A stretch of 64,000 bases of DNA from a virus. The stretch lies in IMG/VR virus record IMGVR_UViG_3300036715_002570, positions 1 through 64,000 of that record. One strand, given 5' to 3'. Below, piece after piece: positions 3,807 to 59,583 of this stretch (positions within the stretch are counted from its first letter, which is position 1; each line of letters starts with the position of its first letter). The notes below the pieces were generated by a model that was given only the letters and a program-made list of their open reading frames with translations, was not told the DNA's origin and did not search any database. Position numbers and translations under genes: made by a program.

Positions 3807-4923
3807 ATGAATACGTACCAGCAAACCTTGTATGCTGATCTGATACAGTTGTGCCAGAAGGAAGCGTTTAACTTTGTTGACCAACAGGTTGAAGGAACCA
3901 CGTTCCGTATCTTCACGTATCGCCTCGCGTCGTACACAGACTTCCTAACGCTCTGGAATGTCGGGGACACATGTTCGAACTTGATGCGACCGGCAATCCG
4001 GTCGCATTGGTGGCGTTGCCGCCTCCAAAGTTCTTCAACAACGAAGAGAACCCATTGACGATGGGGTTGGATTTCTCTAACCCCCGGCAAATCATGTTGA
4101 AAATGGACGGTTCCCTCATCAACACATACATGATGAGTTGTGGTAAGCTACGGTTGAAATCAAAGGCATCCCTTGCTTCCGACCAAGCTGTAGCTGCAAT
4201 GAGTCTCCTTGAGACAACTCCTGACTTCAAAGCAGAGCTGGAACAGCTTGTGTGCCAAGGATACACTGTATCAATGGAGTTCATCAGCCCCACAAATCGC
4301 ATCGTAGTGGGCTATGCAACACCTGATTTGGTGGTGCTGGCAGTTCGCAACCACAACGATGGATCTTTCGTGTACAAAGATGACGATCTCCTAGCAAACT
4401 ACCCGACCATTGTTAACAAATGGGTTAATCATGTTGAAACGACTAACCCTGTGCAGTTTGTTCAAAGCATCAAGGATGTTGAAGGAATTGAGGGCTACGT
4501 AATTCAACTGCGCACAGGTCAATTCGTCAAATGCAAGTCGATGTGGTACATGTCGCTTCACCATGCAAAGGATTCGATCAACAACCCCGTCGCCTGTTCG
4601 AAGCAGTCATCGACGAGGGCGTCGATGATCTCCGTTCGATGTTCGCCCATGACGAGCTCGCAATGAAGCAGATCGATGAGATGCAGACCAAGGTGATGGT
4701 GATGTACAACCACCTCGCCACTGTGTGTGAACAGTATCACGCTGATCACAAGCACGAAGATCGCAAGACGTACGCAATTGGCGCACAAGGTCTGGAACTG
4801 AACAAGATTCGGTTGCTGAGTCTGGTGATGAATATGTACCTCGGTAAGGATCCGGACTTCAAGGGCTGGTTGAAGGGCAAATACCGCGAATTGGGATTCC
4901 GAGATACTTCAATCTCTGACTGA
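3807..4923 (+). pseudogene. T4 Rnl1-like RNA ligase, two frameshifts (about 3945 and 4585)
   Basis: YRLASY, ALECRGHMFE, KFFN, KMDGS, EGYV, K.K motifs spread over three frames. Confidence 0.8.
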
Positions 4924-7304: not shown

Positions 7305-7854
7305 GATGAAGTTCACAGAAATCACGTCGAGTATCACAGAATCAAAGCAAAGTAAGGCGAGTCGTGTTCAGAAGCTGCTTAACGAACGAGCAGCTCTGAG
7401 GAACGAATACCGCAAGGCTATTGAGGCTGGTGATACCGAGCGCGTTGATACTCTCAACGTCAAACTCAACCGTCTGACAGAGACGATCGAAGCTTTACAG
7501 GAGTCTGCATCTCCCAAAGTCGCAACTCGAGCATACATTGCTCAATTGAAGCGTGACCTAGCTGAATTGCATCAGAATCCGAGTAGTCAGGAGGGATACG
7601 ATGCCCGAGACGAACTACTCGCCAAGATCAAGAAAGCAGAATCGGAACTTGCATCGATGACGGAATCGGGCGATACAGCGCTAGCCTATCAAGCAGCTCG
7701 TCAGCAAGCGGTTGAAATCTTGAAACGGTTGTCTGGCCAAGTTGATACTCTGACAGAACAACACGTCCGTCATGGGAATGACTGGGGCTACGTCAATGCG
7801 ATGCGAGCAACAGTAGCCAAACTGCAGGAAATCAGCGACTCCTTTGGAGATTGA
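7305..7854 (+). CDS. coiled-coil hypothetical protein (MKFTEI N-terminus)
   Basis: ORF directly after previous stop. Confidence 0.55.
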
Positions 7855-8145
7855 TGTTACTGCACGAATTGCAAAATGCCACACCAAGAGCTGGCCGAGC
7901 GAATTGTCAAACGAGGCCAGCGTCAAACCATCAAGCCAGAGCCACTCGGCGATAGCCAACATGGCACTGTAATTTCGCAGCCACACTAACCCAATACCGT
8001 GCTGAATCGGATGCACTGTGACGGGTTCTACGAGGACATTCACCCAGGCAACATGATGGTCTGGCGCTCTCCGTACGGCTTCCAACTGGTGTTCACTGAC
8101 CCGTTTACCTCACACCATTCCGCAGGCGAAGAATCGAGTAGTTGA
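7854..8145 (+). pseudogene. kinase-like fragment
   Basis: Frame-broken; encodes DIHPGNMMV...LVFTDPF. Confidence 0.4.
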
Positions 8146-8247
8146 CTTTTTCGTCACTTCGCATATATACTACGACATCGCTGAACAATTCAGCATCCGA
8201 AAAAGATTGGCGAACCCAGTTGACATCTTCATAAATAGATGTACAGT
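8142..8247 (+). promoter_or_regulatory. tandem sigma70-like promoters of tRNA operon 1
   Basis: TTGACT-18-TATACT (8142-8171) and TTGACA-16-TACAGT (8220-8247). Confidence 0.6.
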
Positions 8248-8284: not shown

Positions 8285-8422
8285 ATGACCCATCAACTCC
8301 GACAATCCAGTTTGCAGCTCAGCCAACATTGGCTGGGGATGCTCTCCGTCCGTTCAGAGCTGTGTGGTGATTATAGCTTCGAACAACCCACGACCGCCCT
8401 TTGTGGAGAAACTCTAGCGTAA
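8285..8422 (+). CDS. attenuator leader peptide 1 (45 aa)
   Basis: MTHQLRQSSLQLSQHWLGMLSVRSELCGDYSFEQPTTALCGETLA; 3' codons complementary to terminator arm; weak SD. Confidence 0.75.
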   Translation: MTHQLRQSSLQLSQHWLGMLSVRSELCGDYSFEQPTTALCGETLA

Positions 8423-8444
8423 ACCGCGAAAAGTTCAGATCAAA

Positions 8445-8480
8445 CACAAAGGGCTCTTGAGAAATCAAGGGCCTTTTTTG
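8445..8480 (+). terminator. attenuator terminator 1
   Basis: AAAGGGCTCTTGA-GAAA-TCAAGGGCCTTTTTT. Confidence 0.85.
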
Positions 8481-8536
8481 TTTGCCTTGAGCAAAACAGT
8501 TAACGTCATCCAATTGGCTGAACCTCTGAACTGTCA

Positions 8537-8552
8537 CGATCTTTAACAATTT
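8537..8552 (+). promoter_or_regulatory. rrn-type boxA
   Basis: CGATCTTTAACAATTT vs TGCTCTTTAACAATTT. Confidence 0.7.
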
Positions 8553-8599
8553 GTGTTGTTCCGATAAGCCTAGTGCTTATCGGCAAACAAAAGTTCAAT

Positions 8600-8675
8600 G
8601 GTGGCCATAGTGTAGTGGTCTGCATGAGATGCTGTGAACATCTCGGTACCGGTTCGATCCCGGTTGGACACCCCA
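8600..8675 (+). tRNA. tRNA-His(GTG)
   Basis: Cloverleaf, G-1, CCA encoded. Confidence 0.9.
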
Positions 8676-8721: not shown

Positions 8722-9180
8722 TTGCCAGCAAAGATCAAGATATGCACGCAGTGTAAAGCTGAAAAGCCACTCACTGATTACCGGAAGGATAGAAGCAGAT
8801 TAGACGGTCGAAACTCACATTGCAACGTGTGCGCTAGGGAGAAACAAAGTATTCGATATCAAGAAGTATATGCAGCGTCCCGATCGATTCGCGACAAAGC
8901 ACTTCGTGATGCGAATAAACAGAGAATAGATGAATACAAATCAAGTGGCTGCGTTCTTTGTCATGAAGACGAAACCAGCTGTCTCGATTTCCATCACCTT
9001 GATGCAGATAAGAAAGAGTTTGGAATTGGCGGGAACACGCATCGCACTTGGTCGTATATTGAGCGCGAGCTTGCTAAGTGTGTTCTTGTTTGCAAAAACT
9101 GCCATACAAAGATACATGCTGGATTGATTGAACTACTTTTGCCAATAAGCATTGGAACTGCGTCAGGAACCGCAGGATAA
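8722..9180 (+). CDS. HNH endonuclease
   Basis: CTQC, LDFHH, CKNCH..IH. Confidence 0.8.
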   Translation: MPAKIKICTQCKAEKPLTDYRKDRSRLDGRNSHCNVCAREKQSIRYQEVYAASRSIRDKALRDANKQRIDEYKSSGCVLCHEDETSCLDFHHLDADKKEFGIGGNTHRTWSYIERELAKCVLVCKNCHTKIHAGLIELLLPISIGTASGTAG

Positions 9181-13732: not shown

Positions 13733-13829
13733 GTCGTTGTAGCTCAATGGTAGAGCGCGAAACTGACGCTTTCGGCGTGAAGTTCCCTTTCAAGGCGGAG
13801 ATGGTGGCTCAATTCCACCCAACAACACA
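13733..13829 (+). tRNA. tRNA-Glu(TTC)-like with hairpin insertion
   Basis: Extra ~25 nt between D arm and CTTTCAA loop. Confidence 0.5.
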
Positions 13830-28361: not shown

Positions 28362-28433
28362 TCGGGCGTAGAGTAGGTATGAAGTGAGCTGTATACAGCT
28401 CACTTCACAGGTTCAATTCCTGTCACCCGAACA
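28362..28433 (+). ncRNA. tRNA-like element with perfect palindrome replacing D and anticodon arms
   Basis: Acceptor and T arm present; TGAAGTGAGCTGTATACAGCTCACTTCA. Confidence 0.45.
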
Positions 28434-28447
28434 AATAAGGATTTGCC

Positions 28448-28873
28448 ATGGACTGGCATCAAGGATCCGGCACGATCATCTACGATCCACATCGTGCTGG
28501 CATGAAACGAGACATCGACGGTTGGTGCATCATTGCCGCCGATCGTGAAATCACCCGCTACTACCGCTGGTGGTTGCAGAAGGAACGGCATATCTTGCTG
28601 GATCAACCGTCCTGGGATGCGCACATTTCCGTCGTTCGTGGCGAACTTCGTGCAACTCGCCATCAAAACTGGAAGCGTCGCGCAGCAATGAAGGTCAACT
28701 TCAAGTACCAGCACGGAGACGTGCAAACTACGAAGGATGCGGATCGTCCCGGAACGTTCTACTGGATTCGCGTTGACTGTCCTGCAGTTGATGAGATCCG
28801 GACGGAGCTTGGTCTTCCGACGTCTTGGAAATACCATCACATGACGATCGGTCGGACCCATTACGACTGTTGA
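28448..28873 (+). CDS. 2H phosphoesterase-like protein
   Basis: HISV and HMTI motifs. Confidence 0.6.
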   Translation: MDWHQGSGTIIYDPHRAGMKRDIDGWCIIAADREITRYYRWWLQKERHILLDQPSWDAHISVVRGELRATRHQNWKRRAAMKVNFKYQHGDVQTTKDADRPGTFYWIRVDCPAVDEIRTELGLPTSWKYHHMTIGRTHYDC

Positions 28874-29466
28874 AAGGTGAAAAGTCATCAGCTATTCTAG
28901 GTGTTAACTAGAAGAAGGATAGTTGATGACCAAATCCCGGATCAAGATTGTATTCCCTCCAGAAACGATCGCTCAGATTGAGCGTGATTACCCTGCTGAC
29001 CAAGTTCAAAAGGTCATCGACGAACTGACTGCAGCAGCACAGCAATCACTCGACGAAGATACAGGGACTGTGTTTGATGAACTTCACGAAGAAGACCCCG
29101 AACTGCTGATTGCACTACAAGCGCAAATGAAGCGTCTCGGATATTCCACGTTGGATGAATGGTTCAACGCAGAGACAGAAAAACCTGTCTTGAACTGACA
29201 TATATACATGACCATTGATCACAGCTATTACCGAACAGAACTTCACGTGTTGCAAAACGTTTGTCACGGTGACAACGAAAAGTTCCTGAACGCTGTTGCT
29301 ACGATCATTGGCAACCTGACTGCTCAAAGAGATCGGTTTGCTACCGATCTCTGAATGGCAGAGCATGAGATTCGTATGTTGCGAACTTGGTATCTGTAGC
29401 CATTAAATGGCCAAACAGCGTCATACACCTACACATTCCTCATGTAAGCAATGAGGAAAGCTCAAG

Positions 29467-29859
29467 GTGTGGAATTATCACTCCACAAATACGTATTGCT
29501 CTAACGCATGTCAAGCAGATTGGAAGTGGCGGAACGTAACAATTTTGCAGATTGAAGCTGGAGAAAAGTCATACCATGCTGTCAACACTCTAAAGCGATA
29601 CCTATGCGAAAAAGTTGGTGAAAAATGTGCTGTGTGTGGTCAACTTCCGGAGTGGCAAGGTAAACCCTTGGTATTGCAAGTTGATCATATAGATGGAAAC
29701 AGTGATAATAACTTTCCTTCAAACATCAGGTTGATTTGTCCAAATTGTCACACTCAAACGGATACATTTGGTACTAAAGGTCAAGGATCTAGGTATCAGA
29801 AGGTCACTAAACGTAACGCATATATACGAGAATACCGAGGGAGCTTGGCGCAGCGGTAG
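29467..29859 (+). CDS. HNH endonuclease (true start probably further upstream)
   Basis: LQVDHIDGN..NN.P.N.RLICPNCH. Confidence 0.8.
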   Translation: MWNYHSTNTYCSNACQADWKWRNVTILQIEAGEKSYHAVNTLKRYLCEKVGEKCAVCGQLPEWQGKPLVLQVDHIDGNSDNNFPSNIRLICPNCHTQTDTFGTKGQGSRYQKVTKRNAYIREYRGSLAQR

Positions 29860-29912
29860 CGCAACGCTCTTACACAGCGAAGGTCACAGGTTCGATCCCT
29901 GTAGCTCCTACA
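29839..29912 (+). tRNA. tRNA-Val(TAC)
   Basis: Cloverleaf. Confidence 0.9.
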
Positions 29913-30052
29913 TATTAGAGGAACAAAATGTCCAACAAGTTTGACACAATCGACAAGATCGTCAGCCATGTGATGTTCGGGTTCTCGCCTGATGACTTCG
30001 CTCACTTCCAAGGCATCACGCTCGAAGCGATCTGGCACAAGATTCGCGCTGA

Positions 30053-30340
30053 ATGAAAGTTAACCAATACGGTCCACGTCGTGATGACGTAGATGTGTTT
30101 GTAGAGAACAGCACATATGCTCGTCATATATTGAAAGAGCGTATCATGAAGCAACAGTTGCTGCCTAACAAATGCGCAATCTGCTAAATGTCTCCCGCGT
30201 GGAATGGAAAACCACTGATTCTAATTCTAGATCATATCAATGGAGTCAACAATGATAATAGACTTGACAATCTTAGGTTAATCTGTCATAATTGTGACTC
30301 GCAATTGCCGACATACAAATCACGCAATCGCAAGAAGTAA
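30053..30340 (+). pseudogene. HNH endonuclease with in-frame TAA (30185-30187)
   Basis: CAIC*MSPAWNGKPLILILDHING. Confidence 0.75.
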
Positions 30341-30343
30341 ACT

Positions 30344-30430
30344 GGAAAGTTGGCCGAGTGGTTTAAGGCAGCAGTCTTGAAAATTGCCGGGTGTAACAGC
30401 CCCGTGAGTTCGAATCTCACACTTTCCGCA
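30344..30430 (+). tRNA. tRNA-Ser(TGA)
   Basis: Canonical type II cloverleaf. Confidence 0.9.
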
Positions 30431-30433
30431 AAT

Positions 30434-30554
30434 ACAGGATGGCCCGAACACCAACCAGGGAACACTTGAGACGCCTAGCGTCGTGGGTCTGCCGTAGAGT
30501 GTAAACGTCGTACTAGTCACCGATGTATGTGAGGTTGGAGTCCTCACTCCTGTA
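30434..30554 (+). ncRNA. tRNA-like RNA with expanded anticodon region
   Basis: ACAGGA/TCCTGT ends, T-like arm GTGAGG/CCTCAC. Confidence 0.4.
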
Positions 30555-30780
30555 TCAGATAACTGGAGAAAACATGTTTCCTGTACTCTTTCGTACAACG
30601 TGGCGCACATCAGGCTATGCGTTAGCCCAGACAGTCACAGAATTCGACACGTACGAACTGGCTGAAAATGCAATCAAGGCTCTTGATGCATACCAGTCAA
30701 ATCTTCATAAGACAACGAGTCACGTCACTACGCTACCTCACACGGAAGCAATTCGTCTTTACCAATAACAGGAGAAACAA

Positions 30781-30981
30781 ATTCCAATCTACACCTACAA
30801 ATGCAGTCGCTGCAACACGACTGAAGACTACCTCGTCAAGATCAATGATCCAATTCCTCCGTGCAAGGAATGTGGCAACCCTGACCAAGAGAAGCAATTG
30901 TCAACAGGCACAGGATTCTGCCTGATGGGCTACGGTTGGGCCAAGAACGGAATGAACGCCAAAAAGGTTGGTGACAGGTGA
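30781..30981 (+). CDS. FmdB-like zinc ribbon protein (ATT start)
   Basis: PIYTYKCSRC...CKECG after AGGAG. Confidence 0.65.
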   Translation: MPIYTYKCSRCNTTEDYLVKINDPIPPCKECGNPDQEKQLSTGTGFCLMGYGWAKNGMNAKKVGDR

Positions 30982-31029
30982 AGACGCGCACAGAAGTGTG
31001 AGTTGCTCTTGTGGCAACGGAGTCTGGCG

Positions 31030-31187
31030 ACGATCACGTGTGGAATGGTAAGCCGTTAACCCTTGAGTTAGATCACGTAAATAGTGATAATACTGACAAC
31101 AGTTTACGGAATTTGAGAGTGTTATGTCCGCACTGTCATTCTCAGACTCCAACGTTTAGGCGTAAGAAATCCGCGCGAGTGGCGTAA
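31030..31187 (+). pseudogene. HNH endonuclease 3' remnant
   Basis: WNGKPLTLELDHV...LCPHCHSQT. Confidence 0.7.
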
Positions 31188-31256
31188 TTGGTAGCCGCAT
31201 CTGACTTAAAATCAGCCGCCCCTTGGGCGTACGGGTTCGAGTCCCGTCTCGCGCAC
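31173..31256 (+). tRNA. tRNA-Leu(TAA)
   Basis: Canonical type II. Confidence 0.9.
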
Positions 31257-31271
31257 ATAAATAGACGACTG

Positions 31272-31354
31272 CCCCGATGGCGGAATCGGCAGACGCAGCA
31301 GGTTTAGGTCCTGCCGCTCTTTGAGTGTGGGGGTTCGAGTCCCCCTCGGGGCAC
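31272..31354 (+). tRNA. tRNA-Leu(TAG)
   Basis: Canonical type II. Confidence 0.9.
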
Positions 31355-31720
31355 GGAGCCAGGTAACACTGGGCATAATGCACTTCGTCCTCGATAACAG
31401 GCGATCTAAGGTGCGGGAGATTGAGATGACAAAACAAAGCGTCTGCTATGTAACGCTATGTAACGCTGGGCAATGAATCTGCGAACAAGTTTATCGACAT
31501 TAGCAGTGAGTTCGTACGTGCGTACGAATCTCCTGGTGGAGACGGGGTGGTGATCAAAGAGCCGACGTATCTGTCGGTCAGTGCAGACGGCCATAGAGTG
31601 TTTGACGCTTATGGTACTTGCTACTACAATCCCAGGGGATGGATTGTGCTGAAGTGGAATGCCCGTGATTGACACCCACATTTCGTCAAGTAAATACATG
31701 ATGGCTCAGGCCATCTCAAT

Positions 31721-31796
31721 GTCGCAGAAGCTGAAAAGGAACAGCGCTATCCTCCGAAGGTAGAGAATGTGGGTTCGATTCCCATCTGCGGCTCCA
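31721..31796 (+). tRNA. tRNA-Arg(CCG)
   Basis: Cloverleaf, CCA. Confidence 0.8.
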
Positions 31797-31798
31797 AT

Positions 31799-31992
31799 GC
31801 GGGAGTAGCTCAGTAGTGCACAGAGGGCTTACACATTTCGGCCGTACAGTGTGTAAGATGTAAGTGCTGTCTAGGATCGAGTCGGTAATAAGGGCGTGTA
31901 GCTAACGCTTGGAAGATCGATGGGTGATCAGGCGGTAGAGCAGCCAGTTTCTAACTGGAAGGTCGTTGGTTCGATCCCAACTTCCCGTACCA
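31799..31992 (+). tRNA. tRNA-Arg(TCT) with about 119-nt D-loop insertion
   Basis: GCGGGAG/TTCCCGT, GCTC/GAGC D stem around the insert, CCA. Confidence 0.75.
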
Positions 31993-31996
31993 ATAT

Positions 31997-32686
31997 ATGA
32001 ACGTCCAATACCAACTCGCAGAACTGCAGCCATCGGTTTTCCTGATCACGTCAGATAATCGGTACGATCTGGCACAACTATTTGCTTGTGTGCAGGAGTT
32101 CTACGAGAGTTCCGATCCGCAATGGAAAGGTAAACACTTCCCCCGTGAAGTGTTTGAACGTTGGTACGCACTGAATCAATGCGAAGACCACATCTTCTCG
32201 TATCCAATGGATTGGAGTGGATTCAACGTACCGAGTTGGGCGATAGACGAGTTCTATAAGCAGTCGCCGTATAACACCGATAACAACTTCTACGACAGAA
32301 TGATCAAGCACATTGACAGCTTGATTTCTGAGCGTATAGGCGTTGACATCCCGTACTACCTCATCGGGACTCAGTCAAACGATTTGGAAACGCTGGATCA
32401 CGAGATCGCTCATGGGTTGTACGCAACGTCTCCTGGCTACAAAATGATGATGGATGAGCAGATTGGCAACCTGCCAACACGGACTCGCAACCGCCTCGCA
32501 AGTGTGCTAACGAACATGGGATATGCTGAATCAGTGCACGATGATGAGATCCAGGCAAACTTTGCCACGGGATTGACGTCGTACTTTAAGGGCTTTCAGC
32601 GGTTCTGTCCACCATTTATTGAGGCGTTTGAGCAATACCGCCAACCATTCAATCCAGACTTCACGATAGTCCATCCTTGCCCATAA
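31997..32686 (+). CDS. hypothetical protein with HEXXH motif
   Basis: HEIAH...DEIQA. Confidence 0.6.
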   Translation: MNVQYQLAELQPSVFLITSDNRYDLAQLFACVQEFYESSDPQWKGKHFPREVFERWYALNQCEDHIFSYPMDWSGFNVPSWAIDEFYKQSPYNTDNNFYDRMIKHIDSLISERIGVDIPYYLIGTQSNDLETLDHEIAHGLYATSPGYKMMMDEQIGNLPTRTRNRLASVLTNMGYAESVHDDEIQANFATGLTSYFKGFQRFCPPFIEAFEQYRQPFNPDFTIVHPCP

Positions 32687-32965
32687 ATATCCACTCACAC
32701 AGTGGAGACTGGCATGAAACTATTTGAAATCTTGAACGAAATTGATGCAGGTGATCTGTATCTGGCACATATGGTCGATGATCGCCGCAACCGTGGTGAG
32801 CGTGATCGCAACTCTTACCTAACAGGCTTCTGGTTGATCGATCCGACGTCCGGTAAGAAGATTACCGGACCGTTCAAAGATAAGGAAGCAGCACTGCGCT
32901 TCAAGGCCAATCGCCCTGATAAGGTCCCTGCAAACGCTGTTGTAAAACCTCTGTGAAAGTTTTAC

Positions 32966-33048
32966 GTCCCCATGGCTTAGGTAAATAGGTACAGCCAAAC
33001 CTCTTAAAAGGGTTCGCTTTTGTCGGTTCGAATCCGACTGGGGATACA
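32966..33048 (+). tRNA. tRNA-Leu(TAA), short variable arm
   Basis: AACCT-CTTAAAA-GGGTT; similar to 13836-13918. Confidence 0.75.
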
Positions 33049-33361
33049 AAATGAAAAAACAAACACCCGACGTACGACAGCTCGTGTACGTCGTGCAAGA
33101 TTATGATCAGCAATTGTGTGGCGTCTACACCACACTGCGGCTAGCAGCAGAGCGCTACCAACACATCGTAGATCAAGACCTGACAAAGGAAGAGATCGAG
33201 ACGATGATTGAAGAATATGGCGAAGAGTTTCGCTCTCAATTCGAACGGGCTCCCTGTATCGTTGTCTACCGACTAGACACAGGATGGATCTGGTCATACG
33301 ATTCCTTGCACGAAATCAAACATGCTCTTGAGGGTGGAGAGCAATACGACTAAGGAAGACA

Positions 33362-33679
33362 ATGGCTATCGAAGCAACGAGCGAAACGTTCGAACAAGAA
33401 GTACTAAACAGTGATCTGCCCGTACTGGTTGATTTTTGGGCACCGTGGTGTGGACCGTGCAAAGCACTAGCGCCAACGTTTGAAGCGGTTTCTGCTGACT
33501 ATGCAGGGAAGGTCAAATTCGTCAAGGTCAACGTTGACGAGACAGACCTTGCAAGTAAATATGGCGTCCGTGGCATCCCTGCGCTGCTGGCGTTCAGGGG
33601 AGGCCGGGTACAAGCGTCGAAGTCCGGCGCCGTTAGCAAGGCAGTGCTAACGCAACTTGTGGATGCTCAGTTGCTATGA
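33362..33679 (+). CDS. trxA: thioredoxin
   Basis: VLVDFWAPWCGPCK. Confidence 0.95.
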   Translation: MAIEATSETFEQEVLNSDLPVLVDFWAPWCGPCKALAPTFEAVSADYAGKVKFVKVNVDETDLASKYGVRGIPALLAFRGGRVQASKSGAVSKAVLTQLVDAQLL

Positions 33680-33992
33680 TCGAACAAAGCCCCGTGTTCT
33701 ACTATATGTCGTTTGATGAGATCGTTACAGATTTGATGCTGTACAAGATGTCAGAGGCAACAAAGCGGTACCTCAGGGGGCAGTCGGATCAAGCACAGGA
33801 AGTTGCGCGAGTAATGTTTCCCCTGATTAACAACTATTACAGGTTGACGGATCAGGCCAATACGCACACAAACGATATCCTACCGTCTGTGTTCTGTCAG
33901 AAGATATTTCGAACGATCTGGGGTCGTCTCCAATAACGTTGATCGTCACTTCAAACGGTTATACGGTTACTTGACGGAAACTGTTTAGGATA

Positions 33993-34286
33993 ATGATGAG
34001 CAATTTCAATTTCGATGAATGGGCTGAACTGTACCGAACAGACCCCCGCGCCTTCGACAAGAAGCGCCGTGAGGCAACAGATGCAGCAATTGCGAGCGCA
34101 CCGGAGCATCTTCGTGCCAAGTTGCGCGAAACACAAACGCAATGTGATGCAATTCACACAACACAGCCGGGCCGCGAAGGTGCATCACGGATGTTCGCAA
34201 TGATGCATGACAGTCTGTTGGACATGCAAAATGCGTGGTACGATCTCGCATTCGCCCACCGCGAATTGGCAGCCGTTGCCAAGTAG
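33993..34286 (+). CDS. DUF3135-like protein
   Basis: FDEW..L...DP.AF...R...I..AP. Confidence 0.55.
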   Translation: MMSNFNFDEWAELYRTDPRAFDKKRREATDAAIASAPEHLRAKLRETQTQCDAIHTTQPGREGASRMFAMMHDSLLDMQNAWYDLAFAHRELAAVAK

Positions 34287-34325
34287 GTTGAAAACGGCTA
34301 AGGTATTTGACTAAATACCAAACAT

Positions 34326-34418
34326 GGATGGTTAACCGCACAGGCGTGCGGCACTGTTTCGAAAACAGTTGGAGTCGGCTAGAACCCGGCTTGGGGATCA
34401 AGACCTCAGCCATCCGCA
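34326..34418 (+). tRNA. tRNA-Ser(CGA)
   Basis: Type II cloverleaf, atypical T loop. Confidence 0.75.
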
Positions 34419-35110
34419 TAAGGTGAACCACACCCGGCAATTAGAGCCTCAAGTGTCGTACCTACTCATAACTATACTCAGGGGAGACTCTGCTGCGTCC
34501 AGACCATGATAAACTCTTTCACGAGCCAGAACGAGCTGGCTCCTCTAACGGTTACAACAACGTTCGTACCCGTCGCGCGTACGAAGAACGTTTTGATGAT
34601 CGATATTACGACGGCGTGTTGTCGCCGTCGATGATTGGCTCTGTTGCCCGTGAGGGCATGTGCCTCCGCCACAACTGACATTGGAGCGAGGACAAGGGCC
34701 AGCGCTACAACACCAACGCAATCCGTGGCTTGATTCATAAGAACGTTGACTGACCCTATCCGCTTCCGGATAGTTTGCAATAAGGAGATTCACATGCTTT
34801 GTTGCAAATGCCAGTCCCGCCTGTCGCTGAACTTGGAGAAGTTGAAGCTGATGAATAAATACACCTCTGCGGAGGTGCAGCGTGACAACAGTGCGTACAT
34901 ACATCCGTGCAGTTGTGCACGGACATGAGACAGTAGTATTTGAAATTCCAGCATGGAAACCAGGCGTCTGGATTCATTTGTCGAAGAGGGATGTACCACC
35001 AATTGAACGAGCACATTTACACCCTGGATTCAGGTGTAACGTGACGATCAACATTGACGCAGAAACACCAGACCAACTTCATATCCGTGATTGGGGTTTG
35101 GATTGAGCCT

Positions 35111-35186
35111 GTCCCCATAGTTCAAATGGACAGAATAAGACACTCCTAAGGTCAAGATCCGAGTTCGAACCTCGGTGGGGGCTCCA
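35111..35186 (+). tRNA. tRNA-Arg(CCT)
   Basis: Cloverleaf, CCA. Confidence 0.75.
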
Positions 35187-35446
35187 AACATGAAAAAGTA
35201 CATCACGGTAATCAACCCACAAGGCGCCACTCTAGATGGGGTGTTTGTTCCGATTAGCCACAGAATCCTAATTGAGGGAACAACCATGCATGGGTATGAG
35301 AGTACTGCAAAGCTGTTCCCCACATATCAACAGTTTGCTGATTTTGTCAGCCAAGCTGCGCGATCTCCATCAGGTACGACTGGGACCGTGCGTACCCTCA
35401 GTTGGGAAGTTGCCGACGCGTAAAGCGTCATATATACTTGAATCAT

Positions 35447-35532
35447 GCTGGTGTCGCATAGCGGCTATTGCACCGGTCTTGTAAGCCGGCAGGGAAACCT
35501 AATCGTGAGTTCGAGTCTCACCGCCAGCACCA
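35447..35532 (+). tRNA. tRNA-Thr(TGT) with long variable arm
   Basis: CCGGT-CTTGTAA-GCCGG then AGG-GAAA-CCT. Confidence 0.8.
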
Positions 35533-53887: not shown

Positions 53888-54514
53888 TCATAGTCGCGCC
53901 TGCGCTTTCATCCCTGCATCCAGTAGTTCTTCTTGGAATTGATTGATGTCATGGTGTGAGACGTCAAAGTTGATGTTGCGTTTTGACCGCACAATGTGTA
54001 CTGATGAAATTCCTGGGATTAGTGCTAGCCCAAGGATGTTGGTCATATTAGGAGACAAGTATACTCCCTCCTTGACTACGAGGGCCTTGTGCGTCTTGTG
54101 AATGCCAGACAATGACTGGATATTCTCTAGGTACATCAGATTCAGGAACCTCCCAATCTTCGTTGGCATGTGCTCCAACGAAGTCAGCTTAGGATTATAC
54201 TTGATGGATAGCATGCCGCCAACTTGTGAAGGTGCAAATGCCAAAGTCGTCAGCTGACGACTCATAGACATGTCACCACCAACCACAGATGGAGCTCCCC
54301 TCAACGTTGTCAGATAAGAGCAGTAGAAGTTACCTGTCACAATGCCAAATTGCACAGGTAACACACTTTCGTCGTAGCTGATACTACCATTAACGTGAAC
54401 AATCCCGTCCTTATCAGCGTTCCATTGACCGGCAATGTTGAACCGATCCATCACTCTATCGAGGTCCCCAGGGAACGTTGCAGACGTTGAATCAAGAATT
54501 TCGGTTAAGCGCAT
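53888..54514 (-). CDS. LRR-like repeat protein, paralog of the 20118-21113 C-terminal domain
   Basis: LPVQFGIVTGNF, QEELLDAG. Confidence 0.6.
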   Translation of the reverse strand: MRLTEILDSTSATFPGDLDRVMDRFNIAGQWNADKDGIVHVNGSISYDESVLPVQFGIVTGNFYCSYLTTLRGAPSVVGGDMSMSRQLTTLAFAPSQVGGMLSIKYNPKLTSLEHMPTKIGRFLNLMYLENIQSLSGIHKTHKALVVKEGVYLSPNMTNILGLALIPGISSVHIVRSKRNINFDVSHHDINQFQEELLDAGMKAQARL

Positions 54515-54677
54515 AGCAATCCTTCTTTCAAGTTATTTATCTGACCCCGTTGACTCAATAGGCTAAGTGACGGATAGTCAACGAACTGATTTCAACATCG
54601 CGATTGCAACTTTTCTTGCAGTTGCCATAAATACCCATACAGACAATCACGTCTACCAAATACAAGAGTTACACGAA

Positions 54678-54758
54678 ATGTTCACCACAACTGTTATCAC
54701 CGTCAAGGTCGTGACAAATGCGATTAAAAATTCGCAGGGGACTCTTCGTACCAATTAA
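54678..54758 (+). CDS. attenuator leader peptide 2 (26 aa)
   Basis: MFTTTVITVKVVTNAIKNSQGTLRTN. Confidence 0.8.
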   Translation: MFTTTVITVKVVTNAIKNSQGTLRTN

Positions 54759-54776
54759 GCATCTGCTAATTAACAC

Positions 54777-54814
54777 AAGAGCCCCGCAGAACTAGTTTCT
54801 CCGGGGCTTTTTTG
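54777..54814 (+). terminator. attenuator terminator 2
   Basis: AAGAGCCCCG...CGGGGCTTTTTT. Confidence 0.85.
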
Positions 54815-54889
54815 TTAGTTTGTCGAAATTGAAACCAGCTCGATTCCGCGCGTCAACATGCGAACCGCGGCAGCATTTCAACCAGATAC

Positions 54890-54905
54890 TGTTCTTTTAC
54901 AATTT
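54890..54905 (+). promoter_or_regulatory. rrn-type boxA
   Basis: TGTTCTTTTACAATTT. Confidence 0.65.
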
Positions 54906-54916
54906 GCGCACGTTTT

Positions 54917-54989
54917 GGGCTTGAAGCTTTAAGGTGAAGCAGCGGACTTTTAATCCGCAGAAGAGGGGTCAGTACCCTCCAGGCCTACA
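54917..54989 (+). tRNA. tRNA-Lys(TTT)
   Basis: GCGGA-CTTTTAA-TCCGC. Confidence 0.85.
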
Positions 54990-55003
54990 AATGTGTCTAT
55001 TGC

Positions 55004-55091
55004 TCCGTCCGGGCTGGCTTGGTGAAGGCCTCTGACTGTTAATCAGAAGGATGCAGAAAATGCATGCGAGGATCGTAACCTCGGGACGGAG
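55004..55091 (+). tRNA. tRNA-Asn(GTT) with long variable arm
   Basis: TCTGA-CTGTTAA-TCAGA, ATGCA/TGCAT arm, G73. Confidence 0.8.
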
Positions 55092-55110
55092 CAATAGACA
55101 CTTAGACAAT

Positions 55111-55186
55111 TCCTCTTTAGCTCAGTTGGTAGAGCGTTGCACTGTTAATGCAAATGTCGTTGGTTCGAACCCAGCAAGAGGAGCCA
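55111..55186 (+). tRNA. tRNA-Asn(GTT)
   Basis: Canonical, CCA. Confidence 0.95.
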
Positions 55187-55191
55187 AATTT

Positions 55192-55265
55192 GGGATGCAA
55201 GCTTTAAGGTGAAGCAACTGGCTCTTACCCAGTAGAACTCGGTTCAATACCGTGGCGTCCTACCA
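55192..55265 (+). tRNA. tRNA-Lys(CTT)
   Basis: ACTGG-CTCTTAC-CCAGT, CCA. Confidence 0.8.
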
Positions 55266-55267
55266 CT

Positions 55268-55340
55268 CTTCCGTTGGTGTAATTGGCAACACAGCTGGCT
55301 TTTACGCAGTCGTTCTCGAATCGTTGCCGAGGCGGAGGAC
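55268..55340 (+). tRNA. tRNA-Lys(TTT)-like, degenerate
   Basis: CTTTTAC loop, atypical T arm. Confidence 0.5.
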
Positions 55341-55629
55341 TTAGACGATTATAGAACAACATAATATCTGGAGACGAAATAGATGATTGGTGTCACGACC
55401 CTCTCGCGTGAAGAACGCGTTAAGCTGAAGAAGGCGCTCGAACGAATCGAGGAAGAAGCAACGAAGACGTACGCGATCACACTAAAGATCGTCGTCAAGG
55501 AAACTCGCAGTGACGACCTTGCAGAACCGGGAAGTGCAGTTGACAGCATTGTTGACGTGCTGCTACCTGGCTCTGAAAGGCTGGTCGTCCTCAACCTGAC
55601 GTTCCCTGACGAAGAATAACAGGACAAAT

Positions 55630-55703
55630 TACCGCGTAGCTCAGAAGTAGAGCAACACTCTTACAAAGTGAAGGTCGAGATTGCAAAATTCTCCGTGGCA
55701 ACA
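55630..55703 (+). tRNA. tRNA-Val(TAC), atypical
   Basis: CACT-CTTACAA-AGTG. Confidence 0.65.
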
Positions 55704-55707
55704 AAAT

Positions 55708-55783
55708 GGTCGCGTAGCTCAATTGGTAGAGCGTTCTCTTGATAGGGGGAATGGTTGTAGGTTCAACTCCTACCGTGGCCACA
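55708..55783 (+). tRNA. tRNA-Ile(GAT)
   Basis: Cloverleaf. Confidence 0.8.
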
Positions 55784-55788
55784 AATAT

Positions 55789-55862
55789 ACCCGCGTAATT
55801 CAGTGGTAGAATGCACGCTTGATAGGCGTGAGGTCGTAGGTTCAAGTCCTACCGTGGGTACA
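55789..55862 (+). tRNA. tRNA-Ile(GAT)
   Basis: CACGC-TTGATAG-GCGTG. Confidence 0.9.
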
Positions 55863-55923
55863 ATGTTTAGGATACGGTACTATACCATATCGACTCATAA
55901 ATAACTTCAGCACAGGAGTTAGC

Positions 55924-56562
55924 ATGCAGTCTATGGAAATTATTCGTCAGGTGGAGATTGAGCGGCTTATTGAGGCATATGCTGAAACAGGGTCAATCGC
56001 AGGTGTGGGTCGAGTGATGGGAATATCTGTTAAGGCTCCATGTGTTCGCAAGCTAATAAAGCAGCGCCTGGCAGCAGCAAGCCCATCATTAATGAAGGAG
56101 CATTCCGCCCGCGGATCGTATAGCATTGAGCAAATAAGAGCTGCAGTAGCGAAATCGATCTGTATGTCAGAAGTGTTGCGAGAAATTGGATTAAGTACAC
56201 ATGGGTCTTGCGCTAATGTAATCAAGCGAATCATGAAAGAACACAACATTCTTTCAGATCACTTTGATCCTGCTTTGGCGCTTCGTAAAGGTAACGCTCG
56301 TAGATGGTCACCAGACGAAGTGTTTATCGAGCACAGCCCAATCCCACGGGCCACTCTGCACACGCATGTTAAACGGCATAACGTAATTGGGACACCGGTG
56401 TGCAGTGAATGTGGAGTTGCAACTACTTACAATCGTAAGCCGATTTCTCTGACCGTTGACCATATAAACGGCGTTAGTGATGATAATCGAATAGAAAATC
56501 TAAGGTGGCTATGTCCAAATTGTCATTCACAGACGAGTACGTATTGTGGGAAGAACAAGTGA
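55924..56562 (+). CDS. HNH endonuclease (paralog of 35582-36223)
   Basis: VDHING.SDDNRIENLRWLCPNCH. Confidence 0.85.
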   Translation: MQSMEIIRQVEIERLIEAYAETGSIAGVGRVMGISVKAPCVRKLIKQRLAAASPSLMKEHSARGSYSIEQIRAAVAKSICMSEVLREIGLSTHGSCANVIKRIMKEHNILSDHFDPALALRKGNARRWSPDEVFIEHSPIPRATLHTHVKRHNVIGTPVCSECGVATTYNRKPISLTVDHINGVSDDNRIENLRWLCPNCHSQTSTYCGKNK

Positions 56563-56590
56563 CGGTGTTTCTTGCAGAGAAGTAAAGAAC

Positions 56591-56665
56591 GGGCCTCTAG
56601 TATAGGGGATATTATGCCGTGCTTGCACCGCAGAGACCTAGGGTTCGATTCCCTTCTCTCCTACA
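56591..56665 (+). tRNA. tRNA-Ala(TGC), degenerate
   Basis: CTTGCAC loop and T arm; broken acceptor. Confidence 0.45.
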
Positions 56666-57110
56666 AATAAAAAAGACATGCACACGATGCAAGCAAGAAA
56701 AGCTTCTACAAGACTTCACACGAGACTCATCCCAAAAAGAAGGACATTATTCTGCTTGTAAATTGTGCAAGCGTTTCACAGCCAGGATTCGTCATAAAGG
56801 TGATAATGTGGCGCAGGCGCGAAACAAGCTAAGAGTACAGCAAACATCGCAGATGATTCGTGATAAAAAGTCTTCAGGATGCATTGTATGTGGTGAGCTT
56901 GAGCCAGTCTGCTTAGATTTACACCACACGGATCCAAGTAAGAAAGACGTTGATCCAAACAAGCTGTGGAACCGTGTGTGGGATAAGTTCATGCAGGAGG
57001 CACAAAAGTGTATTGTCGTGTGTAGTAACTGTCACAAAAAGATTCATGCAGGGATGATCGTCAGCCAGTGTGACGGGACTGCAACAATGTTAAGAGCTGA
57101 TCAAGTGTAA
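56619..57110 (+). CDS. HNH endonuclease (paralog of 8722-9180; start uncertain)
   Basis: CTRC, LDLHH, CSNCH..IH. Confidence 0.75.
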   Translation: MLAPQRPRVRFPSLLQIKKTCTRCKQEKLLQDFTRDSSQKEGHYSACKLCKRFTARIRHKGDNVAQARNKLRVQQTSQMIRDKKSSGCIVCGELEPVCLDLHHTDPSKKDVDPNKLWNRVWDKFMQEAQKCIVVCSNCHKKIHAGMIVSQCDGTATMLRADQV

Positions 57111-57169
57111 GTGGTGACACGCCTCTCTCGTAAGGAGGAGAACGGAGTTCAATTCTCCGGATCAGCACA
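57096..57169 (+). tRNA. tRNA-Thr(CGT)
   Basis: Cloverleaf. Confidence 0.85.
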
Positions 57170-57173
57170 AATT

Positions 57174-57246
57174 GCCCCTATAGTTAAATGGTATAACAGG
57201 ACCTTTGTAACGTTCAGTCCACAGTTCGATTCTGTGTAGGGGCACA
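57174..57246 (+). tRNA. tRNA-Thr(TGT)
   Basis: Cloverleaf. Confidence 0.8.
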
Positions 57247-58080
57247 CACTGCAAACAATGGAGGATGCTATGACACAGCTAAACGCAGAACCAATGGAGT
57301 ACCGCGCAAGTCGGTAAACGGAGTTTCAAACAAGTTCAAACAAGTTCAAACGAATGTCTGAACTTTACAGGCACTTTTCCAAAGACTGGGAGCATGTACT
57401 TGATTACTCTGATCAAGCACTACTCGACTTGTACAACCAAGAATCATACGGTGGCCGCGTAGAGTCCAACAACGGATTCGCTGTCGGTAAGAAATGGTTG
57501 AACGTCTACGTAACAGCATGGAAACAATCGATCAGAGAAGGTACTCTGTTCGTCCATGAACTGTACGAAGACCCAGGTTTCCCACATTGGTGGCTAGATA
57601 GCGTACTGAAGGGTGTGTACGACAATCTAGACGTCTGGTGGCAAGACTACAGCAAGACGAAAGTACATCATGATCTCACAAGCGCTTCATAGCAAGTTTC
57701 TAACAAACACAGACGATACGGGCCGATTTGTTGTGTATTCACAGCGAACCGGTCGTCGGTACTACGTTGAGCCGATCGAAACACAACACACCCCCAAGTG
57801 GGGTTCAGTTGATCCAGCAACGGGTGAACTGATGCACAAGAAAGGCGATGGCAAGTACCGTGGCGGTGTCTCTCCAAAGGAGAGCCTGGTCACAGCTGAA
57901 AACGGGTTCAGCATCATTCATGAGCTTGGTATTGGCGTGAGCCCACACCATGCAATCGATGTGATTGATGCTAAGTATCCAGACAAAGCATAACAGGCCA
58001 ATGTACAAACAGTGTCCCGGGTTCATTGTTATGCTGTAGTAGGGTTTCCTCACTTTGTCCCACCTATACAAAGTGATACG

Positions 58081-58155
58081 GGGGCGGGGTGTTTACCGGA
58101 TAGCATATTACCCTTGCAAGGTTTTGGATCGAGTTCGAGTCTCGACGCCTCCACA
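58081..58155 (+). tRNA. tRNA-Ala(TGC)
   Basis: GGGGCG/CGCCTCC-type acceptor, CTTGCAA loop. Confidence 0.7.
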
Positions 58156-58448
58156 AACGCTGTTGATTTACCCTGTTGTAATCGAGAAGATTATGTCACA
58201 AATGGGAATAGTCAGGGGCGAGAAATGGAAAAAGCACTCGTGGTATTCGGTTGCACGATAGTTGGCGGTGGTGCTGGCTATCTAGTCAGCCCCGATGGAA
58301 CTGCCGTGACAATCGGAAGTGCAGTCGGTTTTCTGATTGGCTGCATGTTGGTCAGTGGCAGCGGCGGCGACGGCGGAAGTGCAGCGATCGTTGACCTGAT
58401 TGACGACCTCACTGACGGCTTCGCAACCAGTCACCACTGACAATTTTT

Positions 58449-58512
58449 GGGGATTAGTACAGCTGGAAAAACGCTAGCCTTGCACGCTTGAGTCAGGAGT
58501 TCGATCCTCCAC
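58449..58512 (+). pseudogene. tRNA-Ala(TGC), 3' truncated
   Basis: 5' half and T arm present; 3' acceptor strand missing. Confidence 0.55.
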
Positions 58513-58541
58513 CAGCTAGAAGTCAAACAAAGACAAATAAT

Positions 58542-58615
58542 AGCTCCATAGCTCAATGGTAGAGCACTGCGTTGACATCGCAGATACGAAGGTTCGATTC
58601 CTTCTGGAGCTACCA
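58542..58615 (+). tRNA. tRNA-Val(GAC)
   Basis: Cloverleaf, CCA. Confidence 0.9.
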
Positions 58616-59141
58616 ATTAAAGGAACATGATGATTTACGTCGCAGCACCACACAGCGACCCTGATCTTGCGATCAAGGACGCTAGGGTGCGCGAGTTCTA
58701 CGAGTTTGAGACCACCAAATATAGTCAGATGCCTGATGATTGGGTCTACTGGCAACAGTACAGTGAGCAAATGCTGAGCAAGTGTGACGGGATGGTCTTG
58801 CTGCTGCTAGAAGGCTGGGATAAGTCGACGGGCGTCCTCGCAGAACTCCGTACTGCCGAGACAACGGAATCCCATCCTCGTGACGGATGTCCGCTGGAAG
58901 CAGTTGTACGTTCCCGGACAGGGAATCGAATCATTCGTCATCAAACTGATAACCACTAAATAAGTGGTCCAGTTAAGGGAGCCCTTATGCGTCTGCAAGA
59001 CCTTTCATTCATCACAGAACAACAACTCCGTGAGCAAGCTGTTGCCCAACAGGCTCATGCTTTGCTAGAATCTGCAACTCCTGAGGAACTGATTTTGTCG
59101 GAACCTCGCAGCGCAGAAGACGTAATTGCGGAGTTGTACAA

Positions 59142-59495
59142 GTGATCGAAGTTCGCACGTGCATCTTGTTTCGTAAAACCTCGGTACAGCACTCACGTGA
59201 TCCGCGAGTGCGCGACAAGATCGTAGACTTCATCCGATTCAAGTCAGAGCACCCCCTTGAGTTGTATGGCTCGAAGGATCGTGCGTTTGCTAATGAAGGC
59301 AACTTGCGTGGTTTCATCCACGCAGGCCTAACGTTTGACGTTTCGATCGTGTACAAGATTGGGATGGTCGGTGGTAAGCGGACGTTGGATCTGTACGGCG
59401 TGTTCTCCCACGACGAGCTTGGTACAGGCCAGCCTCGTAACATCAATCGTCAACGTTCTGCTGGTGAAAAGCTGCGGAACCAAGAGATGGAGTAA
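59142..59495 (+). CDS. RelE/YafQ-like protein
   Basis: D..F..G.LRGF.HA.L..D.SIVY...HDEL pattern. Confidence 0.55.
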   Translation: MIEVRTCILFRKTSVQHSRDPRVRDKIVDFIRFKSEHPLELYGSKDRAFANEGNLRGFIHAGLTFDVSIVYKIGMVGGKRTLDLYGVFSHDELGTGQPRNINRQRSAGEKLRNQEME

Positions 59496-59510
59496 CGCTC
59501 CATCTTTCAT

Positions 59511-59583
59511 GCTCTGTTAGTATAGTGGGATAATAACTCCTTGGTACGGAGTAGACACAGGTTCAATTCCTGTACAGAGCACA
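59511..59583 (+). tRNA. tRNA-Thr(GGT)
   Basis: ACTCC-TTGGTAC-GGAGT. Confidence 0.9.

Follow-up and report, generated by a model that had tools for sequence, protein, structure and literature searches.

Multivalent transcription attenuators of enterobacteria control operons such as ilvGMEDA (Ile/Val/Leu) and thr (Thr/Ile), and further leaders of this kind include trpL, hisL, leuL, and pheL. In attenuators of the ilv/thr type, a promoter and a codon-rich short open reading frame (ORF) are followed by mutually exclusive antiterminator and terminator structures with a U-run, the position of the ribosome decides between the two, and several amino acids are sensed by one leader. A comparable set of elements was found upstream of tRNA genes in IMG/VR virus record IMGVR_UViG_3300036715_002570, of which the first 64,000 nucleotides were analyzed (hereafter the window). 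Judging from its sequence, the element at 54678–54814, comprising leader 2 and its terminator, is likely a transcription attenuator of the leader-peptide type, in which the ribosome mediates control and a phage tRNA operon, array 2, is the target; the cassette of leader 1 (8285–8555) likely has an equivalent role for the remaining 14 amino acids. The window is the first part of a single 150,677-nt contig with a G+C content of 52%. Because it carries approximately 50 tRNA genes together with genes for a CCA-adding enzyme and a nicotinamide phosphoribosyltransferase as well as terminase-like and HNH genes, it was assigned to a large tRNA-rich phage genome.

The phage cassettes differ from the enterobacterial attenuators in several respects. 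They are encoded by a phage, and their targets are tRNA genes and small phage ORFs rather than biosynthetic enzymes; since the regulated genes are tRNAs, their product would feed back directly on decoding. Whereas the enterobacterial leaders repeat one to three amino acids, the phage leaders sample every amino acid of their operon (6 and 14, respectively), which is referred to here as the 'roster' principle. The phage cassette is also combined with a boxA-like element. An earlier note on this DNA had called the leader 'thrL/ilvL-like' and had named tRNAs as the regulated genes. The second point was borne out by the array identified from 54917 onward, whereas the first holds for the mechanism, all sequence-level features of which are present, and not for the family: scores reached 13.7–15.4 bits for the Rfam Thr_leader (RF00506; threshold 55) and 21.1 bits for His_leader (RF00514; threshold 49), so that the element is a member of neither. 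T-box riboswitches, which control aminoacyl-tRNA synthetase and amino acid genes in Gram-positive bacteria, likewise convert tRNA charging or supply into a choice between antiterminator and terminator; however, a T-box binds uncharged tRNA directly and without translation, whereas here a translating ribosome would read the signal.

The tRNA genes of phages are usually explained by codon-usage compensation, replacement of degraded host tRNAs, or escape from anticodon nucleases, and these rationales have been argued mostly from gene content. To our knowledge, it is an open question why phages carry tRNA genes and how these are expressed. A search of the full-text literature, with subscription-only papers outside its scope, returned no description of leader-peptide attenuation of tRNA genes.

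Codon content and proposed RNA switch of the two leaders

Leader ORF 2 lies on the plus strand at 54678–54758 and consists of 26 codons and a TAA stop. Starting from the ATG at 54678, it translates to MFTTTVITVKVVTNAIKNSQGTLRTN, the peptide given in the earlier note, and a weak Shine-Dalgarno-like AAGAG is located 9 nt 5′ of the ATG. Codons 3–18 (54684–54731, plus strand), the putative sensing segment, form an unbroken run of 16 Thr/Val/Ile/Lys/Asn/Ala codons; each of the six amino acids occurs, and they are exactly those of the tRNA array that starts at 54917. The longest run of residues from this set (T,V,I,K,N,A) was measured for each stop-to-stop segment in the six frames of the whole genome (n = 5460 segments). 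With 16 residues, the leader 2 run was the six-frame maximum of the 150,677-nt genome, followed by a run of 11. At the six-frame set frequency of 0.305, the expected number of runs of at least 16 residues was 0.0012 genome-wide and 1.6 × 10−6 in the 400 nt upstream of the array.

The codon list agreed with the earlier description of codon usage, comprising both Lys codons (AAG, AAA), three types for Thr (ACC, ACA, ACT), three for Val (GTT, GTC, GTG), and two for Ile (ATC, ATT). Every codon of the run can be read by an anticodon of the array: ACC and ACT by GGT, ACA by TGT, GTT and GTC by GAC, GTG by TAC, ATC and ATT by GAT, AAA by TTT, AAG by CTT, AAT by GTT, and GCG by TGC. Asn is encoded by AAT in all three cases, while the long ORFs of the phage favor AAC (68%); it might be speculated that this choice tunes sensitivity. 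Array 2 itself (54917–59582, plus strand) contains, in order, Lys-TTT (54917), two Asn-GTT, Lys-CTT, a weaker Lys-TTT (55268), Val-TAC (55630), two Ile-GAT, Thr-CGT, Thr-TGT, Ala-TGC, Val-GAC, and Thr-GGT, with small ORFs and two HNH endonuclease genes interspersed. The first tRNA-Asn(GTT) gene (55004–55092) is 89 nt long and carries an insertion relative to the second copy (55111–55186); long Asn(GTT) genes of 94–95 nt recur in contigs L111, L115, L117, and L118.

A sigma-70-type promoter (TTGACT-17-GATAGT; 9 of 12 matches) is located on the plus strand at 54550–54578. The gene upstream of the cassette (53888–54514) lies on the opposite strand and is thus divergent. Therefore, the promoter serves the leader and the array only, the stretch 54515–54916 constitutes a divergent control region, and a forward terminator within it has no gene to end.

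The sister cassette provided an internal control. Leader ORF 1 (8285–8422, plus strand; 45 codons) is free of Lys, Asn, and Ile and is preceded by two tandem promoters on the plus strand at 8142–8247 (TTGACT-18-TATACT and TTGACA-16-TACAGT; 10 of 12 matches each). Array 1 begins with tRNA-His at 8601 and serves H, S, L, P, R, F, D, Y, C, E, M, W, G, and Q, and leader 1 holds the shortest stretch of the genome (21 residues) in which all 14 of these amino acids occur. Residues of the two sets were almost completely separated between the leaders: codons 3–35 of leader 1 contain 32 residues of set 1 and one of set 2, compared to none and 16, respectively, in codons 3–18 of leader 2 (Fisher p = 5 × 10−12). 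The foreign residue in the 21-residue stretch is the single Val of leader 1, encoded by GTC. A tRNA-like gene in array 1 (13733–13827; anticodon GAC, Val; Rfam 52 bits) has a long extra arm or an insertion and represents the sole array-2-type amino acid there; owing to this gene, the 20 amino acids are not divided quite cleanly between the arrays.

The elements of the cassette, their statistics, their alternative pairings, and their conservation are properties of the DNA itself. In cassette 2, all elements of the RNA switch are on the plus strand. The start codon lies within region 1 (54673–54687). For RNA free of ribosomes, pairing of this region with region 2 is predicted by the minimum-free-energy fold; the fold of 54668–54755 amounts to −24.9 kcal/mol. 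Region 2 (GCAGGGGACTCTT, 54734–54746) lies inside codons 19–23 and forms the 5′ strand of the antiterminator. Region 3 (AAGAGCCCCGC, 54777–54787) is both the 3′ strand of the antiterminator and the 5′ arm of the terminator. The pairing of region 2 with region 3 through two bulged A, as proposed in the earlier note, was reproduced by folding as a duplex of 11 bp, the hairpin over 54730–54790 having −19.4 kcal/mol. The intrinsic terminator (54777–54814) combines a hairpin at 54777–54811 (−20.1 kcal/mol) with a run of six T at 54808–54813; a simple terminator scan missed this hairpin owing to its loop limit of 8. The near-equal calculated energies of antiterminator and terminator (−19.4 vs. −20.1 kcal/mol) resemble those of classical attenuators. 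Of 1000 dinucleotide shuffles, 18 reached the complementarity that the ORF region shows to the terminator 5′ arm, and the whole 161-nt stretch had a folding z of −5.9.

To model ribosome geometry, 30 nt surrounding the A-site codon were blocked, codon by codon, on a transcript ending before the 3′ arm of the terminator. With stalls at codons 1–16, region 3 remained paired upstream as the antiterminator (P 0.74–0.97), and with stalls at codons 17–27 (to the stop) its upstream pairing fell to P 0.21–0.44. The switch boundary fell where the in-set run ends, which explains why the tail SQGTLRTN does not follow the composition rule: this part forms the antiterminator strand. Leader 1 behaved in a comparable manner. 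Its antiterminator strand (8396–8405, plus strand) has an exact 10-bp complement at 8445–8454, overlapping the terminator at 8448–8480; the duplex (−19.4) was matched by 5 of 1000 shuffles, and modeled stalls at codons 1–33 kept the antiterminator, placing the boundary at codon 33–34, with in-set residues extending through codon 35.

A small hairpin (TGCGA-loop-TCGCA, 54717–54735) within codons 14–19 of leader 2 abuts the antiterminator strand and differs in L118 in its loop only; it is a possible RNA polymerase pause hairpin.

Orthologs, distant relatives, and unrelated phages

The genomic context in relatives was drawn from contigs that carry homologs of a 107-aa ORF inside array 2 (57670–57993). 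The ortholog, L118 (from a 162-kb contig), is syntenic with the window, with a CCA-adding enzyme, a divergent gene of approximately 205 aa, the cassette, and a Lys/Asn/Ala/Ile/Thr/Val array. The alignment of both loci was 77% identical overall, with conserved blocks at both promoter hexamers, the context of the leader ATG (ACGAAATG), region 2 (identical), region 3, the lower terminator stem, and a motif preceding the tRNA genes; region 1 is kept only in part. Compared to the window, the L118 leader (MNFNHVITVKAATNAIKKSQGTLRA) has four synonymous changes and the in-set replacements V to A (twice) and N to K. From Val6 on, no replacement in the aligned codons leaves the six-amino-acid set, while codons 3 and 5 (Phe and His) are outside of it, and with 13 residues this leader has the top-ranking in-set run of its locus. 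Region 3 of L118 (AAGAGCCCCTG) still pairs, in a shifted register and with one bulge fewer, and its upper terminator stem has a different sequence with pairing kept (−28.0). The stall model gave the same behavior as for the window.

A 63-aa frame starting at GTG 54567 is also open across leader 2. It had no family match in PHROGs and was rejected as a real protein, since its N-terminal part is not kept in L118, where a 28-nt deletion and a stop are found. Because the part of this frame upstream of the ATG is not conserved, the 26-codon ORF is the conserved unit.

In each of three more distant relatives (L113, L111, and L117), a single larger array is present, and the leader spells the set of that array, which differs from that of the window. 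The L113 leader (MITRNVKTTKMFWQQRQNTVVRFERHEIDRM) contains no residue outside of its set (31 of 31), and each of the 13 types occurs in it (expected 1.2 × 10−5). L111 has a tRNA-Cys gene and WQQCQ in its leader; at the same place L113 has WQQRQ. The terminators of these three loci differ, and each ORF tail complements the arm of its own terminator, which was matched by 0–2 of 500 shuffles; this is equivalent to covariation of entire helices. The spacers between terminator and first tRNA in these loci (L113 4745–4940, L117 6940–7195, and L111 6700–6930) are 200–250 nt long and include a conserved, structured-looking segment (..CCGAGTACTCTTCAGGC..CGAGTGCGAAAAGGGATGGATA..). The three contigs also encode a Ro60/TROVE protein, and the spacer segment is possibly a Y-RNA-like RNA that is transcribed together with the array.

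In order to survey loci by a criterion independent of leaders, 110 IMG/VR loci were fetched with an 18-mer from the D-arm of tRNA-Lys and screened for a terminator 40–400 nt before the first tRNA of the array and an ORF ending just before the terminator. Several unrelated AT-rich phages were found to have short ORFs with many rare residues corresponding to their own arrays. L041, for example, has an array for P, I, C, W, Y, Q, M, and S and the peptide MISKRQPQISICWYPRI..., in which the order P..I..CWY follows the gene order Pro-Ile-Cys-Trp-Tyr. In all four AT-rich loci tested, the 3′ part of the ORF complements the terminator arm (matched by 0–9 of 500 shuffles); these cassettes are located at 4773–4930 in L041, 5041–5210 in L103 (minus strand), 391–560 in L094, and 485–680 in L014. 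Near-copies of these loci are L088, L108, L079, L019, L098, L027, L036, L039, and L092. The same design is thus found at eight other loci, made up of L118, the relatives L113, L111, and L117, and the four AT-rich loci of unrelated phages.

Further searches for relatives gave little. A DNA search of GenBank phages returned no close relative and matched single tRNA genes only; among the same phages, a 597-aa tail-fibre-like protein had no match, and the CCA-adding enzyme reached approximately 36–41% identity at best. Scans of IMG/VR with three neighboring proteins returned no relatives, and a gapped DNA pattern of region 3, terminator, and boxA had no match in metagenome contigs. Homologs of the divergent 208-aa gene were few, and the one context checked (L126) was not syntenic. 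Five contigs near-identical to the window (L121–L125) have leaders that are 100% identical and therefore carry no microdiversity information. Identical contigs are present in JGI samples 3300035180–82 and 3300037010 of the source environment. The 107-aa ORF used to find relatives had 307 homologs (65–82% identity) on phage contigs of 50–385 kb, typically beside tRNA genes; the precomputed Pfam field was empty for the listed homologs. As a conserved protein linked to tRNA arrays, it may merit separate investigation.

The relation between leader and array bears on the strongest of the alternatives, according to which the translated leader and the terminator switch would report general translation capacity (ribosome availability, transcription–translation coupling, or global amino acid starvation) or infection timing rather than particular tRNAs. 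In the model, the structural outcome is the same whatever slows the leader ribosome, six or fourteen amino acids sensed together come close to a global signal, and sigma-70-type promoters are common to both cassettes. However, a general sensor needs no particular composition, while each leader holds the extreme value of the whole genome for its own set, the two leaders are mutually exclusive, and in relatives the leader tracks the content of the array. We therefore regard a general-capacity sensor as improbable.

A boxA-like element between terminator and tRNA genes

The boxA consensus GYTCTTTAANA is gammaproteobacterial and represents the NusB/NusE site of rRNA operons (PMC5725501). A match to this consensus follows the terminator of each cassette. 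In cassette 2, the boxA-like element GTTCTTTTACA is part of a conserved motif (TCTTTTACAATTTGCG, 54891–54908, plus strand) and matches the consensus at 54891–54901; in cassette 1, the element GATCTTTAACAATTTGTG (8538–8555, plus strand) matches at 8538–8548. Both copies agree with the consensus at 10 of 11 positions, although this gammaproteobacterial consensus may not be that of the host. The 16-mer TCTTTWACAATTTGYG occurs genome-wide at 8540 and 54893 only, in each case between the terminator and the first tRNA, and L118 keeps the motif as TGCTCTTTTACAATTTGCG (7523–7541), although a different tRNA follows there. The boxA region of the rrnB leader of E. coli MG1655, 129 nt before the 16S gene, contains the 13-mer TCTTTAACAATTT found at 8540 in identical form. 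It is position and conservation, not score, that carry the boxA argument.

The motif is probably an rrn-type boxA, for which recruitment of NusB/NusE is predicted, and read-through transcripts would for this reason probably be termination-resistant via host Nus factors. The full cassette would accordingly consist of promoter, leader ORF, attenuator, boxA, and array, with only those transcripts that pass the attenuator gaining the antitermination signal. Such a signal fits an array transcript of many kilobases that is largely untranslated. Like boxA of the E. coli rrn operons, which it resembles in 10 of 11 consensus positions, the phage element lies in an untranslated leader just upstream of stable-RNA genes. 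In contrast to rrn boxA, it follows a leader-peptide attenuator and precedes tRNA arrays instead of 16S rRNA, and clear boxB or boxC partners were not established for it. An AT-rich contig that shares the 107-aa array gene and is not a close relative (L119) has a perfect GTTCTTTAAAA at 9093–9103, approximately 190 nt before its tRNA array, and boxA before tRNA arrays may thus be a wider habit. The spacers between terminator and tRNA in L113 and L117 contain no boxA-like site with at most one mismatch, and none was found in the whole locus of L111.

The same spacer is where a separate start of the array would have to be sought. If the ORF and the hairpin were an independent small gene or small RNA, the array would be transcribed from a start further downstream, and the leader composition would be coincidental or reflect a function of the peptide. 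TACAAT (54897–54902) within the conserved motif could serve as a −10 box, with TTTCAA 16 nt upstream; L118 conserves the sequence between terminator and tRNA; and the 63-aa frame from GTG 54567 is open. As a promoter the motif was rejected: the copy at 8540 has AACAAT in this place and lacks a −35 box, a scan of the spacers of both cassettes scored no sigma-70-like promoter, and the motif instead matches boxA. Loss of the N-terminal part of the 63-aa frame in L118 and its lack of a PHROGs match speak against an independent gene, and coincidence is excluded by the run statistics together with the recurrence in eight other loci. An independent unit with a separate start of the array is thus very unlikely.

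Proposed mechanism and its meaning for phage tRNA operons

Taken together, the cassette combines a promoter and leader ORF, a codon cluster related to the array, a terminator, an antiterminator sharing a strand with it, and a ribosome geometry that fits in the model. From these features we infer translation of the leader, switching in vivo by ribosome stalling, binding of Nus factors to boxA, and the identity of the signal. Host RNA polymerase would start at the promoter at 54550–54578 and transcribe the 26-codon leader, which a ribosome would translate behind the polymerase. When codons 3–18 are decoded fast, the ribosome would reach the end of the ORF and cover 54734–54746, allowing the terminator at 54777–54811 to form and transcription to stop at the U-run. 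When any of these codons is slow because the charged tRNA is scarce, the ribosome would stall upstream, 54734–54746 would pair with 54777–54787, and the polymerase would read through. On the read-through RNA, the boxA-like element at 54891–54901 would probably recruit host NusB/NusE and other Nus factors, so that the polymerase could cross the long, largely untranslated array without premature (Rho-dependent) termination. The tRNAs made would speed decoding of the leader and shut the operon again, resulting in negative feedback on tRNA supply. The event that slows decoding could be the decay of host tRNAs after shut-off, codon mismatch, starvation, or the action of anticodon nucleases.

Several observations weigh against leader-peptide attenuation or limit it. 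The Shine-Dalgarno sequence of leader 2 is weak (AAGAG, 9 nt upstream), and none is visible for leader 1. ACG (Thr-CGT) and ATA (Ile-TAT) are left unsampled by leader 2 despite dedicated tRNAs, and residues outside of the set occur at Phe2 in the window leader and at Phe3 and His5 in that of L118. The promoters were scored as sigma-70 type, which may not be the type used by the host. A 10/11 match to the boxA consensus is reached by seven sites in the genome, five of them besides the two copies. The comparison of the window with L118 gives no base-pair covariation in the key helix. Since the complete RNA at equilibrium always folds to the terminator, the switch must be kinetic. A kinetic decision is also made in the trp attenuator. 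Furthermore, in untranslated RNA cut before region 4 the minimum-energy fold is the antiterminator and not the 1:2 pairing, and termination without translation therefore depends on the order of folding.

Least likely of all is a protein- or tRNA-binding RNA switch (T-box-like, or an antiterminator dependent on a phage protein) to which the ORF is irrelevant: the alternative antiterminator/terminator pairing would serve it as well, and the small conserved hairpin at 54717–54735 before region 2 could be in its favor, but no T-box (even at E up to 10 with the covariance model) or other riboswitch family scored in 54500–55000, leader-type matches were far below threshold, and such a switch would leave unexplained why the codons are in-frame and restricted to the set, with synonymous and in-set substitutions between orthologs.

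A third, looser tRNA group is present at 28362–35532 (Val-TAC, Ser, Leu-TAA, Leu-TAG, Arg-CCG, Arg-TCT, Ser-CGA, Arg-CCT, and Thr-TGT), with sigma-70-like promoters directly before single tRNAs, e.g., at 30264 and 31602. No third attenuator was seen before the tRNA group at 28–36 kb, a region that was not studied in depth.

If leader-peptide attenuation of the tRNA operons is correct, the phage gauges how fast each codon is decoded and supplies tRNAs as they are needed; a textbook form of control would reach a new class of targets, in which the regulated product acts directly on the sensor. The two cassettes predict opposite responses to shortages of aminoacyl-tRNAs, offering a handle on whether tRNA-cleaving defence is sensed. 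The boxA-like element adds a second testable link, to the Nus-factor antitermination of the host. The earlier note had pointed out that four of the six amino acids of array 2 use ANN codons, a group that includes the tRNA-Lys targeted by anticodon nucleases; this is correct as a statement on ANN codons, and to see in ANN codons or anticodon nucleases the reason for the partition of the arrays is speculation.

As a broader and more tentative proposal, to which we give somewhat less than even chances, phages with large tRNA sets would use demand-driven operons behind 'roster' leaders that sample each amino acid of the array. Any tRNA shortage, whether from host shut-off, codon mismatch, or anticodon-nuclease defence, could then open the matching operon, and boxA would hand the polymerase to the rRNA antitermination system of the host. 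With two sensors splitting the 20 amino acids in this phage, the Lys/Asn/Ile/Thr (ANN) group would be on a switch of its own and could act as a detector of tRNA-targeting immunity. Such leaders could also be used to predict the content of phage tRNA operons and to locate arrays and transcription units in metagenomic phage contigs.

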